A stretch of 4,062 nucleotides of DNA, taken from positions 1-4,062 of IMG/VR virus record IMGVR_UViG_2675903654_000014. One strand, written 5' to 3'. The translations under genes were made by a program, and so were the position numbers. The notes beneath the pieces were generated by a model. It was not told the origin of the DNA, did not search any database, and was given only the letters and a program-made list of their open reading frames with translations. Shown piece by piece: positions 288 through 3,732 of the stretch (its first letter is position 1; each line of letters begins with the position of its first letter). Source of the stretch: a virus. Its lineage: Duplodnaviria > Heunggongvirae > Uroviricota > Caudoviricetes.

Positions 288-350
288 ACCTTTCAAGGCT
301 CAGTGTCAGATCAAGTCGCGACTAATACACTCAATTCCATCATAAACTTC

Positions 351-479
351 TCAGTTGTTAGCTTTTGCCGAACTGGAAAGCGCCTGTTTAAACTCACTGA
401 AGCTGAGAGCTTCTTCGCCTTCGGCAAGGCCTTCGAAGTATTCTTCGTAAGCCTTTTTCATGATTGTGTCGAAATCCAT
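351..479 (-). CDS. Small hypothetical protein, 42 aa, acidic and probably helical
   Basis: ATG at 479-477 on minus with GGTGA SD 5 nt upstream; stop TGA at 353-351; lies 10 nt downstream of the 48-aa ORF stop. Translation MDFDTIMKKAYEEYFEGLAEGEEALSFSEFKQALSSSAKANN. The overlapping plus-strand track ORF 303..533 is F/L-rich with a GTG start and looks like its antisense shadow. Confidence 0.45.
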   Translation of the reverse strand: MDFDTIMKKAYEEYFEGLAEGEEALSFSEFKQALSSSAKANN

Positions 480-489
480 ATCACTCACC

Positions 490-636
490 TTAGTTTCTTT
501 CCAACCAGCGACGTGCGCCAGCTTCGGTTTTAAACGATTTGCTTTTGGTATACGTCATGGCGGTGAATGTGCCGTCCTGATTGGGAAACACGCCACATAC
601 CAGAGATTCGTTGTTGCCAAGATCGATAGTATCCAT
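490..636 (-). CDS. Small hypothetical protein, 48 aa
   Basis: ATG at 636-634 on minus with GAGG SD 5 nt upstream; stop TAA at 492-490. Translation MDTIDLGNNESLVCGVFPNQDGTFTAMTYTKSKSFKTEAGARRWLERN. The track extends this frame to a TTG at 699 that has no SD; the internal ATG is preferred. Position next to the repressor resembles the tiny ydaG/ydaF-type ORFs of Rac-like prophages (size and position only). Confidence 0.45.
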   Translation of the reverse strand: MDTIDLGNNESLVCGVFPNQDGTFTAMTYTKSKSFKTEAGARRWLERN

Positions 637-816
637 GTTGACCTCATTTCCCCTTAACGCCGGGTGGCGGAACGTTTTATCTACTGCGCTTTGTATCAAT
701 CAACAACTGCCGTCATGTTCGTATGCCTCAGGCTGGCTACTTAGCCCTGTTCAGTGGCTGGATAACTCGAGGTATTGTCCAGCCGTTCTCTGGTGGGGCG
801 TTGTTTGGATATGCTT

Positions 817-845
817 ATTAAACACAATGCGTTTTCTTATGTCAA
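817..845 (-). promoter_or_regulatory. Leftward sigma70-type promoter (PL-like): TTGACA, 17-bp spacer, TTTAAT
   Basis: On the minus strand, perfect -35 TTGACA (plus 840-845) and -10 TTTAAT (plus 817-822) with a 17-bp spacer. It lies just downstream of the repressor terminator and is oriented toward the small ORFs. Confidence 0.5.
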
Positions 846-858
846 CACGAAATGTGTT
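844..858. promoter_or_regulatory. Candidate operator (OL-like) 15-bp palindrome AACACGAAATGTGTT overlapping the -35 of the leftward promoter
   Basis: Inverted half-sites AACAC / GTGTT; related to the two palindromes in the repressor-cro intergenic region (1373-1387, 1419-1433). Confidence 0.4.
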
Positions 859-885
859 TTGTGGTGAGTGTCATATGATGATGGT

Positions 886-911
886 ACAAAAAAGCCCGCT
901 GATAGCGGGCT
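886..911 (-). terminator. Rho-independent terminator for the repressor gene
   Basis: 8-bp GC-rich stem AGCCCGCT (893-900) / AGCGGGCT (904-911) with a 3-nt loop, followed on the minus strand by UUUUUGU (plus A-run 888-892). It is 30 nt downstream of the repressor stop and is not a terminator in the plus orientation. Confidence 0.55.
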
Positions 912-941
912 GATTGGCATATTACTGTGATAGCAAGATCA

Positions 942-1361
942 TTACTCCGGTGGGGGATTATCTTTAAGCCTGCCTCTCAAATATTTTTCTACATACTCAT
1001 CGATTTCTTTTAGCCGGACTTCAAATAGCTCAATCATTCGTTGTTGTTCTGAGCCAGGTAGCTGGTTAAACAACTCAAGAAGTTTTCGTTGGGATTCATT
1101 TAACCACAATTCAGAAGATTCCTGTTCTCCAAATAGGAGCTCAGGAGGAGATATGCCAAGTGCCTTTCCCAATACGACAGCGTCATGCACTCCAACATTT
1201 CTGCTGCCCGCCTCATAGTTACCTATACGCGATTGCGTCCATCCGCAGATTTCAGCAAGTTTTCCTTGAGATAAACCAAGCTTCTGCCTGCGCTCTTTAA
1301 GACGCATTGCAATTTTGTCATTGAGCCTACTAGCGGCAATTTTTTCGTTTTCTTTTTCCAT
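942..1361 (-). CDS. Prophage repressor, XRE-family HTH (CI/RacR-like), 139 aa, no S24 peptidase domain
   Basis: Track ORF with ATG at 1361 and AAGGA SD 4 nt upstream. HTH segment LGLSQGKLAEICGWTQSRIGNYEAG; C-terminal part is helical and charged with no Ser/Lys peptidase motif. Divergent from a Cro-like gene, as in lambdoid immunity regions. Confidence 0.85.
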   Translation of the reverse strand: MEKENEKIAASRLNDKIAMRLKERRQKLGLSQGKLAEICGWTQSRIGNYEAGSRNVGVHDAVVLGKALGISPPELLFGEQESSELWLNESQRKLLELFNQLPGSEQQRMIELFEVRLKEIDEYVEKYLRGRLKDNPPPE

Positions 1362-1372
1362 TGCATCCTTGT

Positions 1373-1387
1373 ATCACGAATCGTGAT
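1373..1387. promoter_or_regulatory. Candidate operator: perfect 15-bp palindrome ATCACGAaTCGTGAT in the repressor 5' leader
   Basis: 7-bp perfect arms around one central base; lies 2 nt upstream of the repressor SD on its mRNA. Confidence 0.4.
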
Positions 1388-1408
1388 TTACATAAAACAC
1401 AAAACAGC

Positions 1409-1439
1409 TTGACCATATAACACAAGGTGTGTTTAAAAT
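1409..1439 (+). promoter_or_regulatory. Rightward promoter (PR-like) for the cro-like operon
   Basis: -35 TTGACC (1409-1414), then -10 TTTAAA (1432-1437, 17-bp spacer) or TAAAAT (1434-1439, 19-bp spacer); followed by GGAGG SD (1447-1451) and ATG at 1458. Confidence 0.45.
1419..1433. promoter_or_regulatory. Candidate operator (OR-like) 15-bp palindrome AACACAaggTGTGTT overlapping the PR spacer and -10
   Basis: Perfect 6-bp arms AACACA / TGTGTT with a 3-nt centre; same half-site family as 844-858. Confidence 0.4.
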
Positions 1440-1457
1440 TGTCATCGGAGGTTTTCA

Positions 1458-1700
1458 ATGAACAAAATTTCAACATATCGAAAACAGCTTGGGCTGTCTC
1501 AAAGACAACTTGCTGTTCAGTTAGGGTGGATACAAAGCCGACTGGCAAATTACGAAGCAAATTTTCGTACCCCTGGACTAGAGGAGTGCAGAAAAATTGT
1601 TTCTACCCTTAATCGGCTTGGCGCTCATTGTGGACTTGACGATGTATTCCCCCCAGACGGTAAGCATAGCGAAAACAGCATAGGAGCGGTTGATTCATGA
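1458..1700 (+). CDS. Cro-like XRE-family HTH regulator, 80 aa
   Basis: Track ORF with ATG at 1458 and GGAGG SD 6 nt upstream. HTH LGLSQRQLAVQLGWIQSRLANYEAN is about 60 percent identical to the repressor HTH over 30 residues. First gene of the rightward operon; its stop overlaps the next start (ATGA). Confidence 0.8.
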   Translation: MNKISTYRKQLGLSQRQLAVQLGWIQSRLANYEANFRTPGLEECRKIVSTLNRLGAHCGLDDVFPPDGKHSENSIGAVDS

Positions 1701-1707
1701 AAATCAG
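1690..1707. promoter_or_regulatory. Inverted repeat TTGATT-N6-AATCAg spanning the cro stop / ydaT-like start
   Basis: TTGATT (1690-1695), 6-nt spacer, AATCAG (1702-1707); 11 of 12 positions palindromic. Confidence 0.4.
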
Positions 1708-2119
1708 GCATGAGCACATCGAATCAGTGTTGTTAGCCCTGGCAGCCGAAAAAGGGCAGGCGTGGGTCGCTAACGCAATTACTGAAGAATATCTGCGCCA
1801 GGGGGGCGGCGAATTGCCCCTGGTACCAGGCAAGGACTGGAATAATCAGCAGAACATCTATCACCGTTGGTTAAAAGGTGAAACGAAAGCGCAAAGGGAA
1901 AAAATTCAGAAACTGATCCCTGCGGTTCTGGCAATTCTTCCGCGCGAGCTGCGTCACCGACTCTGCATCTTCGATACCCTGGAACGCCGTGCATTACTGG
2001 CGGCGCAGGAAGCGTTGAGTACGGCAATTGATGCGCATGATGATGCAGTCCAGGCCGTTTACCGGAAAGCACATTTCAGCGGTGGTGGGTCGCCCGGCGA
2101 TTCTGTCGTAGTGCATTGA
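1697..2119 (+). CDS. ydaT: YdaT-like protein (CII-functional-analogue / putative toxin family of Rac-type prophages), 140 aa
   Basis: Track ORF; ATG at 1697 overlaps the cro-like stop (ATGA). Translation MKIRHEHIESVLLALAAEKGQAWVANAITEEYLRQGGGELPLV... matches my recollection of YdaT in sequence and length (140 aa). Position after cro equals that of lambda cII. Confidence 0.75.
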   Translation: MKIRHEHIESVLLALAAEKGQAWVANAITEEYLRQGGGELPLVPGKDWNNQQNIYHRWLKGETKAQREKIQKLIPAVLAILPRELRHRLCIFDTLERRALLAAQEALSTAIDAHDDAVQAVYRKAHFSGGGSPGDSVVVH

Positions 2120-2196: not shown

Positions 2197-2979
2197 ATGG
2201 CTTCAAACTGGATAAAGCTCGAGGTTATTACGCCGGATAAGCCGGAAATATTCAGGCTTGCTGAGATTCTGAATATTGATCCAGATGCCGCATTAGGGAA
2301 GGTTATTCGCTTCTGGGCATGGGCGGATCAACAAATGATAGACGGTAATGCAGATTGTAACGCTCGCGGCGTTACAAAAAGTGCAATAGATCGCATCACT
2401 TTTATGGCTGGTTTTGCTGATGCGTTAATTCAGGTTGGATGGCTGATCGAAAATGACGGTGGGCTTTCTCTACCTAACTTTGAACGTCATAACGGGAAAA
2501 GCTCTAAAAAACGGGCGGTTACAAACGAGCGAGTAACAAAAATACGCGAACTGCAACGAAAAGGTAACGCTGCCAGCGTTACACAAACGGATCAAAAAGC
2601 GTTACCAGAGGAAGAGGAAGATATAAATACTGATCTCCCCCTAAATCCCCCTCGCCAAAAACGAGCGTCTAAAAAATTCGAGCCGGAGGCTATCGAGCTG
2701 CCTGACTGGTTGCCGGAAACACTCTGGCATGAGTGGTTTCAGTTCAGGCAGGCATTGCGAAAACCGATTCGAACGGAGCAGGGCGCTAACGGGGCGATAC
2801 GGGAACTGGAAAAATTCCGTCAGCAGGGTTTTACACCTGAGCAGGTGATTCGACACAGCATCGCCAATGAATACCAGGGCTTGTTCGCACCGAAAGGTGT
2901 TCGGCCTGAGACGTTGCTCCGACAGGTTAACACCGTCTCGTTGCCGGACAGTGCGATCCCGCCAGGCTTCAGGGGGTAA
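2197..2979 (+). CDS. Replication initiation protein, YdaU / DUF1376-like (lambda O functional analogue), 260 aa
   Basis: Track ORF with ATG at 2197 and AAGGTGA SD. Sits immediately upstream of a DnaC-like gene, the usual initiator / helicase-loader pairing. Contains internal dyad repeats. Family assignment is from memory of DUF1376-type prophage proteins and was not searched. Confidence 0.75.
   Translation: MASNWIKLEVITPDKPEIFRLAEILNIDPDAALGKVIRFWAWADQQMIDGNADCNARGVTKSAIDRITFMAGFADALIQVGWLIENDGGLSLPNFERHNGKSSKKRAVTNERVTKIRELQRKGNAASVTQTDQKALPEEEEDINTDLPLNPPRQKRASKKFEPEAIELPDWLPETLWHEWFQFRQALRKPIRTEQGANGAIRELEKFRQQGFTPEQVIRHSIANEYQGLFAPKGVRPETLLRQVNTVSLPDSAIPPGFRG
2357..2375. repeat. 19-bp dyad repeat copy 2, GTAACGCtcgcgGCGTTAC, inside the initiator CDS
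   Basis: Perfect 7-bp arms; encodes the peptide CNARGVT. Confidence 0.6.
2518..2537. repeat. Degenerate, inverted-order relative of the dyad repeat (GTTAC-N10-GTAAC)
   Basis: GTTAC (2518-2522) and GTAAC (2533-2537); encodes AVTNERVT. An isolated half-site AGCGTTAC is at 2598-2605. Confidence 0.35.
2564..2582. repeat. 19-bp dyad repeat copy 3, GTAACGCTGcCAGCGTTAC, inside the initiator CDS
   Basis: Perfect 9-bp arms around one central base; encodes GNAASVT. Confidence 0.6.
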
Positions 2980-2985
2980 TGGACC

Positions 2986-3710
2986 ATGAAAAATATTGCG
3001 ACAGGCGGTGTTCTTGAACGTATCCGTAAGCTGGCTCCGCAGCATGTAACCGCGCCGTACCGGACTGTGGACGAGTGGCGAGAGTGGCAGCTTGCAGAAG
3101 GGCGAAAACGTAGCGAGGAGATCAACCGCCTGAATCGTCAGTTGCGGGTGGAAAAAATTCTGAATCGCTCAGGCATCCAGCCGTTGCATCGTAAATGCTC
3201 GTTTGCAAATTACCAGGTGCAGAACGACGGCCAGCGATACGCGTTNNNNNNNTGATGACCGGGGGTACAAATTTTGCGTTCAGCGGAAAACCTGGTACCG
3301 GGAAGAACCACTTAGCGGCAGCTATCGGAAATCGCCTGCTGAAAGATGGCCAGACAGTGATTGTGGTTACTGTGGCTGATGTTATGAGTGCCCTGCATGC
3401 CAGCTATGACGACGGACAGTCAGGCGAAAAATTTTTGCGGGAACTGTGCGAAGTGGATCTGCTGGTTCTTGATGAGATTGGCATTCAGCGCGAGACGAAA
3501 AACGAGCAGGTGGTACTGCACCAGATTATTGATCGACGGACAGCGTCGATGCGTAGCGTGGGAATGCTGACAAATCTGAACTATGAGGCCATGAAAACAT
3601 TGCTCGGTGAGCGGATTATGGATCGCATGACCATGAACAGCGGACGCTGGGTGAATTTTAACTGGGAGAGCTGGCGTCCGAATGTCGTCCAGCCAGGAAT
3701 TGCGAAGTAA
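2986..3710 (+). CDS. DnaC-like replicative helicase loader (AAA+ ATPase; YdaV-like), interrupted by a 7-N gap
   Basis: N-terminal part [20 protein letters not shown]...[26 protein letters not shown] and C-terminal part ...[20 protein letters not shown]...[10 protein letters not shown]...[22 protein letters not shown] align by eye with E. coli DnaC (Walker A GKPGTGK, Walker B LLVLDE). ATG at 2986 with GGGGG SD; stop TAA at 3708-3710. The two halves sit in different frames across the N-run at 3246-3252. Confidence 0.8.
3246..3252. other. Run of 7 ambiguous bases (assembly gap or masked sequence) inside the DnaC-like gene
   Basis: nnnnnnn in the sequence; flanking coding frames differ, and by alignment to DnaC about 11 residues are missing. 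Confidence 0.9.
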
Positions 3711-3732
3711 TTTTTACCGGGAGAAAAATTTA

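Follow-up and report, generated by a model that had tools for sequence, protein, structure and literature searches.

Three related 15-bp palindromes lie around a short repressor gene in a prophage of Escherichia coli, and the question raised by this locus is whether they are operators and, if so, of what kind of switch. An earlier note on this DNA had proposed an OL/OR-type arrangement similar to that of phage lambda, in which one repressor would control both early promoters and its own gene. Judged from position, conservation, geometry, the encoded proteins and covariation, all of which support that proposal at the level of sequence, the palindromes are very probably the binding sites of the repressor and of a Cro-like protein in an ordinary lambda-style switch of a Rac-like prophage.

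The stretch of DNA analysed, referred to here as the window, is 4,062 nucleotides long and corresponds to the immunity region of a Rac-like prophage of E. coli, with a 100% match to an E. coli chromosome beside intR/xisR at ttcA. Its genes are ordered ydfB–ydfA–repressor / cro–ydaT–rep–ydaV, a layout like that of dicC–dicA–ydfA–ydfB in Qin, and encode a DicA-like short repressor, a Cro-like protein, the CII analogue YdaT and replication proteins; the repressor and Cro-like genes are divergent, with 96 bp between them. At least 153 complete genomes of E. coli carry this immunity type, among them those of O145:H28 and O157:H7 STEC, and closely related forms occur in Salmonella and other Enterobacterales. 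The features discussed below are collected in the table.

Table. Coordinates of predicted regulatory sites and genes in the window (strand left empty for sites without one).
Feature	Position	Strand	Remarks
PL −10, TTTAAT (probable)	817–822	−	17 nt downstream of TTGACA at 845–840
OL1, weak/half putative operator, AACACAATGCGTTTT	821–835		PL spacer/−10; 1 mismatch to pattern
PL −35, TTGACA	840–845	−	from sequence
OL2, strong putative operator, AACACGAAATGTGTT	844–858		exact palindrome; overlaps PL −35
Intrinsic terminator after repressor gene	893–911	−	8-bp stem with 6 G–C pairs, then T run
Repressor gene, 139 aa	942–1361	−	N-terminal HTH_3, C-terminal helical region
PRM-like −10 hexamer, TACAAG (inferred)	1368–1373	−	6 nt before repressor ATG
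O3 (OR3 equivalent), putative operator, ATCACGAATCGTGAT	1373–1387		exact palindrome; arms invariant; offset in relatives −26/−27
O2 (OR2 equivalent), half-degenerate putative operator, AACACAAAACAGCTT	1396–1410		overlaps PR −35
PR −35, TTGACC	1409–1414	+	from sequence; same register as lambda TTGACT
O1 (OR1 equivalent), strong putative operator, AACACAAGGTGTGTT	1419–1433		exact palindrome; PR spacer to −10; offset in relatives −72/−73
PR −10 region	1432–1439	+	TTTAAA (1432–1437) or TAAAAT (1434–1439)
Cro-like gene, 80 aa, HTH_3	1458–1700	+	Pfam; recognition helix GWIQSRLANYE
YdaT-operator-like inverted repeat, TTGATTCATGAAAATCAG	1690–1707		cro/ydaT junction; candidate site, PRE-like leftward promoter
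YdaT (CII analogue) gene	1697–2119	+	Pfam YdaT_toxin

The three palindromes of the earlier note (OL2, O3 and O1 in the table) are present where it had placed them, and the A-CAC...GTG-T pattern that it drew from them holds, all three being exact matches to AWCAC-N5-GTGWT. A repeat finder joined them into one family, and the 25 kb of matching prophage contains the same three exact sites and no others. One could suppose that such sequences are chance occurrences, promoter-associated sequence or weak transcript hairpins, with no dedicated binding protein, but the window holds three matches where 0.03 are expected, and three or more were reached in none of 200 dinucleotide-preserving shuffles. All three palindromes can thus be taken as real, while the list of them was incomplete: O2 and OL1, each with a single good arm, lie exactly 23 bp from strong ones, which brings the predicted operators to five (O1, O2, O3, OL1 and OL2).

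The centres of O3, O2 and O1 are 23 bp apart in the right cluster. O1, as had been claimed, occupies the rightward promoter, filling the spacer after TTGACC and reaching TTTAAA. The register of the PR −10 is ambiguous, with TTTAAA giving a 17-bp spacer and TAAAAT one of 19 bp; TAGAAT/TAAAAT is favoured since Salmonella relatives carry TTTAGAAT at that position. The TTGAC of the PR −35 is kept in most related loci. The left arm of O2 is invariant and its right arm variable in relatives, where a good GTGTT arm stands at this position instead. O3 had been described as an element of the repressor leader, a placement that we would revise: the site is better read as the equivalent of OR3, and probably falls inside the core of a weak PRM-like promoter, in its spacer. 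Throughout the repressor family a TA.AA. hexamer abuts O3 at 6–7 nt from the ATG, represented here by TACAAG without the conserved final T. A transcript from this weak promoter may be leaderless, although the presence of AAGGA, resembling a Shine-Dalgarno motif, ahead of the repressor ATG speaks for a leader on at least some transcripts.

The left cluster comprises two sites, not three, set on TTGACA-17-TTTAAT on the minus strand. The proposed position of OL2 at the leftward −35 holds, with a 2-nt overlap of the perfect TTGACA, and its centre is 23 bp from that of OL1; at the same distance on either side of the pair, nothing convincing as a third site was found at 798–812 or 867–881. Relatives have a strong palindrome at the place of OL2 downstream of the repressor gene, with 0 of 10 arm columns variable and a variable centre, while OL1 has one invariant arm (821–825) and one variable arm (831–835). 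The promoter itself is similarly constrained, with none of the six columns of the −10 variable among 32 distinct related PL regions and TGTCAACAC kept in nearly all related PL regions; the string TTATGTCAACAC at the PL −35 is common to lambda OL2/PL. PR and PL both escaped a simple promoter scan of the window, which requires an A at position 2 of the −10 that neither hexamer has, so that the promoter assignments rest on the conserved −35 hexamers and on the register shared with lambda and VT1-Sakai.

Conservation was assessed in about 70 distinct related loci, with repressors 57–100% identical, drawn from the best 80 of 541 IMG/VR matches in an alignment-based scan of viral contigs; a single-protein scan of genome contigs gave 5 loci, and the Salmonella relatives are at 84% and 61% identity. 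Most of the approximately 70 loci carry CAC-N5-GTG palindromes at −26/−27 and at −72 to −76 from the repressor ATG, and a left palindrome at about +80 to +140 after the repressor stop. Among 27 distinct OR regions, variable columns number 0 of 25 in the arms, 7 of 15 in the centres and 25 of 56 elsewhere (Fisher 3e-4 for arms against centres and 1.4e-5 for arms against other columns), and among the 32 distinct PL regions 0 of 15, 9 of 10 and 29 of 51, respectively; many of the compared loci are closely related, and these counts are therefore not fully independent. The centre of O1 is a clear example, as four of its five columns vary, with two to four bases each, between invariant arms. Within E. 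coli, diversity is 0 in the arms, 0.041 in the non-arm intergenic positions and 0.020–0.027 at third codon positions; diversifying selection on the operator centres was considered and rejected, the intergenic value being only about 1.5–2 times the synonymous one.

Part of this conservation could be promoter constraint, given that arms of O2, OL1, OL2 and O1 touch promoter hexamers, and for O2 and OL1 the sole conserved arm partly overlaps promoter elements, so that their conservation could partly reflect the promoter. Against promoter constraint as the whole explanation, invariance is just as complete in O3 and in the promoter-distal arms, changes in the arms between classes of repressor track residues of the HTH, and the same motif forms the operators of lambda, which are experimentally established, and of VT1-Sakai, where they are a putative annotation. 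The 15-mers can also form small hairpins, but at −2.7 to −4.3 kcal/mol the folds are marginal, and the sites stand on both sides of divergent promoters; the RNA-hairpin reading was rejected on these energies. Taken together, a chance, promoter or hairpin origin with no dedicated binding protein is highly improbable, and operators remain the preferred interpretation.

The proteins encoded on either side of the right cluster are consistent with such operators. Judged by its sequence, the repressor is a DicA/GfoR-type short protein with no LexA/S24 autocleavage domain: Pfam places HTH_3 at residues 21–75 only and gives no match to Peptidase_S24, and the protein is 29% identical to DicA over its full length (residues 14–135 of 139 aligned). 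The AlphaFold model is all-helical (pLDDT 87), with C-terminal helices at 89–99 and 103–133, and sequence and fold searches of the PDB matched only the generic HTH domain and nothing in these C-terminal helices. The HTH is 58% identical to that of mEp213 CI, a similarity that stops at residue 80, and only weakly similar to lambda CI (31% over 75 residues), with Q32, Q43 and S44 nevertheless matching the lambda LSQ and QS motifs (LGLSQ...QS). Most related loci pair the repressor with a homologue of the Cro-like protein. Over 42 residues this Cro-like protein matches the HTH of the repressor at 45% identity; the two recognition helices are near-identical, and both begin with Gln-Ser, as does that of lambda CI. 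In the structure of the lambda repressor–operator complex, Gln44 contacts the A at position 2 and Ser45 contacts the G of base pair 4.

Position 2 of the operators varies together with the first residue of the recognition helix: QS repressors go with A, SGSS repressors with C or T, and A-S repressors, alongside an Arg-containing Cro, with G, although with three helix classes this covariation represents few independent events. The same comparison bears on the possibility that the Cro-like protein is the main or sole ligand of the palindromes and that the 139-aa repressor recognises some other sequence in the region. Cro has the lambda-like QS helix, and the SGSS class of pPE4 and Salmonella retains this Cro alongside another repressor and other outer operator bases, which means that Cro can serve more than one operator variant. 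However, this pattern, in which the outer bases follow the repressor class and Cro is constant, is that expected if the repressor reads them; the recognition helix of the repressor is nearly identical to that of Cro, and the intergenic region has no other conserved repeated motif. Binding by Cro alone or in the main is therefore very unlikely. Recognition by a host global regulator such as a CRP-like protein, in place of the phage proteins, is scarcely credible: the TCAC and GTGA tetramers recall CRP half-sites, but the motif is restricted to the immunity region and covaries with the phage repressor class, and the CRP-like reading was rejected on arm orientation and spacing (TGTGA-N6-TCACA for CRP, while the arms here run CAC-N5-GTG outward-in).

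We therefore consider it highly likely, on the sequence evidence, that the palindromes are the operators of a lambda-type bistable switch in this ttcA-integrated, Rac-like prophage. In the scheme that we infer, which covers binding, order of occupancy, cooperativity, promoter starts and the route of induction, a dimer of the DicA/GfoR-type repressor would bind each 15–17-bp dyad of the form T-A-(A/T)-C-A-C-N5-G-T-G-(T/A)-T-A. Repressor on O1, in the PR spacer and −10, and on the weak O2 at the PR −35 would switch off transcription of cro, ydaT and the replication genes, and repressor on OL2 at the PL −35 and on the weak OL1 in the PL spacer and −10 would do the same for the ydfA/ydfB-type leftward operon. 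The weak sites would probably be filled cooperatively from the neighbouring strong ones, and occupancy of O3, within the PRM-like spacer, would turn down repressor synthesis. The Cro-like protein, whose recognition helix is almost identical, presumably acts at these sites too, in another order of preference.

The earlier note also suggested that the repressor gene may need activation or an upstream start, which fits both the weakness of the PRM-like promoter and an inverted repeat at the cro/ydaT junction with one mismatch to TTGATT-N6-AATCAA (0.03 expected). This repeat coincides in location with the footprinted OM site of CP-933P (PMC9986795), and a YdaT-activated PRE-like promoter at this junction would offer a second route to repressor expression. 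The YdaT gene belongs to PHROG 163, CII-like activator (E = 1.5e-36), and its product is a distant match to the CP-933P YdaT structure 8bt1. As the repressor has no S24 peptidase domain, induction would be expected to depend on an antirepressor, as it does in Gifsy and Qin, and not on RecA-stimulated cleavage. No antirepressor was identified among the genes in the 25 kb of prophage, and there is no LexA box (CTGT-N8-ACAG) in the same 25 kb, which leaves the induction route a predicted one. An ORF6N-domain gene is annotated downstream in the prophage.

Perhaps predictably, with a half-site of the TATCAC type as in lambda and a spacing that is nearly lambda's, the finding is well supported but unsurprising and leaves the current understanding of such switches unchanged; its value is that an uncharacterised type of immunity now has a predicted operator map, made up of five sites, the two early promoters and one promoter each of the PRM-like and PRE-like kind. 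The lambda 17-mers start 13, 36 and 60 nt from the repressor start codon and those here at 13, 36 and 59; the half-site core TATCAC/TAACAC is the same, lambda OR2 is an exact match to AWCAC-N5-GTGWT and, as the counterpart of O2 at offset 36, overlaps the PR −35 in the same way, and lambda likewise has a second operator cluster at PL. The PRM register is also comparable (GTGA-TAGATT-TAACGT-ATG in lambda, GTGA-TACAAG-GATGCA-ATG here). Unlike lambda, the repressor has 139 aa, a helical C-terminus and no S24 peptidase domain, there are two OL sites, O2 and OL1 are half-degenerate, YdaT stands in place of CII, and the operator centres are A/T-rich and variable where those of lambda are of the CGC type.

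Several prophages have a similar layout with different operators. CP-933P has divergent repressor and cro-ydaT operons about 96–97 bp apart, as here; there, PaaR2 and YdaS were footprinted on the 97-bp intergenic region, operators were found at PL and the repressor mRNA is leaderless (PMC8630535), PR, PRM and PL are all under control of repressor and Cro (PMC8630535, PMC9986795), and the ydaS/ydaT junction holds PRE and an operator for YdaT (PMC9986795). Its operators are 18-bp repeats of the GTTTAGTAA type, unlike those here, its YdaT is only distantly related, and the paaA2-parE2 toxin–antitoxin genes that follow PaaR2 are absent from our locus. Qin shares the gene order and has ydfA-ydfB, 93% identical in DNA, downstream of the leftward promoter. 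Qin and Gifsy (GfoR/GfhR/GtgR) encode short non-cleavable repressors homologous over their full length to the one described here (PMC10448788, PMC3121763), with operators at the divergent and leftward promoters, as here. DicA represses dicBp and dicCp (PMC10448788), and the antirepressors are Rem in Qin and GfoA and others in Gifsy (PMC10448788, PMC3121763). However, Qin operators are of the TTAG...CTAA type, and DicC is unrelated to our Cro-like protein.

Operators of the same family occur in the immunity types of mEp213, mEpX1 and the Stx1 phage VT1-Sakai, whose CI HTH domains are 49–58% identical to that of our repressor and whose Cro proteins are homologous. In mEp213 and VT1-Sakai, three plus three sites of the same CAC-N5-GTG 17-mer type occupy the same places, and the VT1-Sakai record (AP000400) already lists such a 3+3 set as putative operators; a limited literature search found nothing on the operators of mEp213 or H-19B. 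The half-site common to lambda, VT1-Sakai and mEp213, together with a repressor that is not RecA-cleavable, raises the possibility of repression in either direction between the prophage and lambdoid phages of this operator family, whether resident in the same cell or superinfecting it. We regard such cross-repression as unlikely; among its partners would be Stx1 phages of the O145 and O157 strains harbouring the prophage, and, if true, it would join phages that respond to different induction triggers in a single immunity network. The repressors of mEp213, mEpX1 and VT1-Sakai differ from the one here in having a LexA/S24-type cleavable C-terminal domain, and these phages have three good sites per side. 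One DNA-binding and operator module is common to RecA-cleavable CI proteins (mEp213, VT1-Sakai) and to short repressors of the antirepressor type. This sharing is a clean illustration of how domains are shuffled between phage switches, and it may provide a basis for cross-immunity; here an mEp213/VT1-Sakai-like DNA-binding module is joined to a short DicA-like C-terminus.

The earlier note had proposed that three palindromes of the form A-CAC...GTG-T flank the repressor gene as operators of the OL/OR type, and all three 15-mers are present (OL2, O3 and O1 in the table). A[AT]CAC-N5-GTG[AT]T has three matches in the window against 0.03 expected, a number reached by 0/200 shuffles, and 25 kb of the source prophage yield no other exact match. 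A fourth putative operator, OL1, surfaces once mismatches are allowed in the pattern search, and a fifth, O2, was spotted by eye; the site centres lie 23 bp apart on both the left (828/851) and the right (1380/1403/1426). At the rightward and leftward early promoters, PR and PL, alike, one site terminates within the -35 hexamer and the second occupies the spacer and extends into the -10, in equal register on both sides. A consensus promoter scan of the window called neither PR nor PL because both -10 hexamers lack an A at position 2, and the two assignments therefore rest on homology. The exact 11-mer AAAACAGCTTG occurs twice, across O2 and the PR -35 (1401-1411) and within the cro coding sequence (1481-1491), which may be chance.

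Features of the immunity region and its surroundings (window coordinates)
Feature	Position	Strand	Detail
ydfB-like gene	351-479	-	
ydfA-like gene	490-636	-	DUF1391
PL	-35 845-840; -10 822-817	-	TTGACA, 17 nt with OL1, TTTAAT
OL1 (putative)	821-835		AACACAATGCGTTTT
OL2 (putative)	844-858		
Intrinsic terminator	893-911	-	
Repressor gene	942-1361	-	HTH_3, 139 aa
O3 (putative)	1373-1387		
O2 (putative)	1396-1410		AACACAAAACAGCTT
PR	-35 1409-1414; -10 1432-1437	+	TTGACC, 17 nt with O1, TTTAAA
PR, alternative -10	1434-1439	+	TAAAAT, 19-bp spacer
O1 (putative)	1419-1433		
Cro-like gene	1458-1700	+	HTH_3, 80 aa
Candidate YdaT site	1690-1707		TTGATTCATGAAAATCAG
ydaT	1697-2119	+	CII-like activator
Inverted repeats	2164-2184, 2356-2376, 2563-2583		(T/G)GTAACGC-N5-GCGTTACA
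Replication initiator gene	2197-2979	+	
DnaC/IstB-like ATPase gene	2986-3710	+	broken by seven-N run, 3246-3252

Relatives were gathered by a protein search, which found the repressor family across the Enterobacterales at 55-100% identity, by a viral-contig scan with the family alignment (best 80 of 541 IMG/VR relatives) and by a genome scan (5 loci), giving a compared set of about 70 loci distinct in upstream region, protein or both. Relative to the repressor ATG, nearly all of these have CAC-N5-GTG palindromes at positions -26/-27 and -72 to -76, and most have a further one about 80-140 nt beyond the repressor stop codon; the aligned relatives share one promoter and operator architecture. 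The E. coli and Salmonella subgroup, whose repressors are 84-100% identical, provides 27 distinct OR regions; in these, no column of the good arms (the conserved 5-bp palindrome arms) varies (0/25), against 7/15 in the centres and 25/56 elsewhere (Fisher 3e-4 and 1.4e-5, respectively), and in 32 distinct PL regions the corresponding counts are 0/15, 9/10 and 29/51; many of the compared loci are closely related, and these columns do not count independent events. At O2 and OL1 of related loci the degenerate arms vary while the good arms are invariant, and the E. coli group has a nucleotide diversity of 0 in the arms, against 0.041 for the remaining intergenic DNA and 0.020-0.027 at third codon positions. 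Invariant arms around variable centres are the pattern that would be expected of a dimeric protein whose contacts fall on the outer bases, with the centre unconstrained. A further site, CTCACAT(A/C)TAGTGTT, lies by the cro ribosome-binding site, about 99 nt ahead of the repressor ATG, in compared loci L008, L009, L058-L066 and L070; it is limited to this Citrobacter-type subgroup and has no counterpart in the window.

When lambda repressor is bound to its operator, the position-2 adenine is contacted by Gln44, and Ser45 touches the base-pair-4 guanine; aligned with lambda CI via LGLSQ....G.(T/G)QS, Q32, Q43 and S44 of the window repressor correspond to the lambda LSQ and QS motifs. The helix-turn-helix of the Cro-like protein (GWIQSRLANYE) is near-identical to that of the repressor (GWTQSRIGNYE; 45% identity over 42 residues), and shared sites are therefore expected, as in lambda. 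Within the family, the base at operator position 2 appears to track the first recognition-helix residues: it is A where repressor and Cro both carry QS, mostly C or T where the repressor has SGSS and Cro keeps QS, and mostly G where the repressor has A-S and an Arg replaces the Gln of Cro, although with just three helix classes this is suggestive rather than statistical. In PP818812 (‘Actinobacillus phage vB_Apl-pPE4’, 4248-5396; a host label that looks odd beside the E. coli-like sequence), the Cro protein is identical to that of the window and the cro-ydaT DNA 96% identical, while the repressor, with an SGSS helix, is just 62% identical and its operators carry CTCAC/TTCAC. In IMG/VR, a Salmonella group likewise combines SGSS repressors and CTCAC/TTCAC operators with the Cro recognition helix of the window, so that a single Cro helix serves two repressor/operator classes.

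Pfam finds only the HTH domain in the window repressor and no S24 peptidase domain, which groups it with the short, non-cleavable repressors of the DicA/GfoR/GtgR type. An AlphaFold model (35 relatives; pLDDT 87) is all-helical: five helices form the HTH domain and two more, 89-99 and 103-133, come after it. PDB fold and sequence searches gave matches confined to the HTH domain. Short repressors of this type are inactivated by antirepressors (PMC3121763, PMC10448788), and we infer a similar induction route here; within 25 kb of the prophage no LexA box was found and no antirepressor gene was recognised.

The earlier note had placed 1373-1387 in the repressor leader and found no convincing sigma-70 promoter for that gene. 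The first point probably does not hold, as a TA.AA. hexamer resembling the -10 of the repressor's own promoter, PRM, abuts the right arm of O3 family-wide, 6-7 nt before the repressor ATG, with TTGAG. 17 nt further upstream in many relatives. Lambda PRM has the same arrangement and the lambda cI transcript starts at the AUG, and the CP-933P repressor mRNA has been demonstrated to be leaderless (PMC8630535). TACAAG, the window hexamer, is a weak one with no final T, which would fit a promoter requiring activation, a need reported for DicA and PaaR2 (PMC10448788, PMC8630535). Leadered transcripts would be served by an AAGGA motif that directly precedes the ATG. For these, a candidate source in repressor establishment is a PRE-like (leftward establishment) promoter region at the cro stop/ydaT start, where 1690-1707 has one mismatch to TTGATT-N6-AATCAA (0.03 expected), the footprinted YdaT operator of CP-933P, whose PRE lies at the same junction (PMC9986795). 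Because YdaT of the window is only distantly related to that of CP-933P, the site is a lead, not a result.

Window 700-1750 is 100% identical to part of an E. coli chromosome, and at least 153 complete E. coli genomes, O145:H28 and O157:H7 strains among them, carry it in full; the best match places it in a prophage integrated beside ttcA with intR/xisR, the Rac position. The N run seems to reflect masking or a gap in the assembly rather than biology; in the matching RefSeq genome ydaV is intact, at 747 nt. Of the three near-identical inverted repeats, spaced about 190-210 bp, one lies just upstream of the initiator gene and two within it; their cores are 2-mismatch matches in the operator-pattern search, and a probable role for them is as origin or initiator-binding sites. 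The Qin prophage shares the gene layout (dicC-dicA-ydfA-ydfB), and its repressor, DicA, has 29% identity to the window repressor over the whole length. Its ydfA-ydfB in K-12, downstream of dicBp, has 93% DNA identity to window 347-677, while the two elements differ in the type of repressor, Cro-position protein and operators, which reads as mosaic exchange at the immunity-region boundary.

The window was also aligned with the annotated lambda immunity region. With base one of the reversed start codon as the reference, the 17-mers start at 13, 36 and 60 in lambda and at 13, 36 and 59 in the window; lambda OR2 (TAACACCGTGCGTGTTG) and window O2 (AAACACAAAACAGCTTG) both finish in the TTG of the PR -35; and TTATGTCAACAC is common to OL2/PL of both. 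The window half-site T-A-(T/A)-C-A-C is the lambda consensus half-site, lambda OR2 matches the A-CAC...GTG-T pattern exactly and OL1, OL2 and OR3 with one mismatch each, and on the repressor strand lambda GTGA-TAGATT-TAACGT-ATG stands against window GTGA-TACAAG-GATGCA-ATG. As far as sequence comparison reaches, the OL/OR interpretation is supported, and the element appears to be a lambda-type switch, its putative operators homologous to those of lambda in sequence and layout, with a DicA/Gifsy-kind repressor: an uncharacterised switch, not previously known, within a well-known kind. The operator type is already in the public record, there joined to a different C-terminal domain. In mEp213 the same motif forms three sites at OR and three at OL (within 1431-1492 and 2226-2286), and the LexA/S24-type CI has 58% identity to the window repressor in its HTH domain, and the Stx1 phage VT1-Sakai (AP000400) has three plus three annotated "putative operators" of the same kind (1717-1781 and 3645-3713), a homologous Cro and a cleavable, S24-type CI with 49% identity in the HTH. 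Common HTH domains and CAC-N5-GTG operators with differing C-termini show domain shuffling between induction modules. The less ordinary point is this single operator and HTH module common to cleavable and non-cleavable repressors, which might allow cross-immunity between the window prophage and phages of the lambda, mEp213 or VT1-Sakai type.
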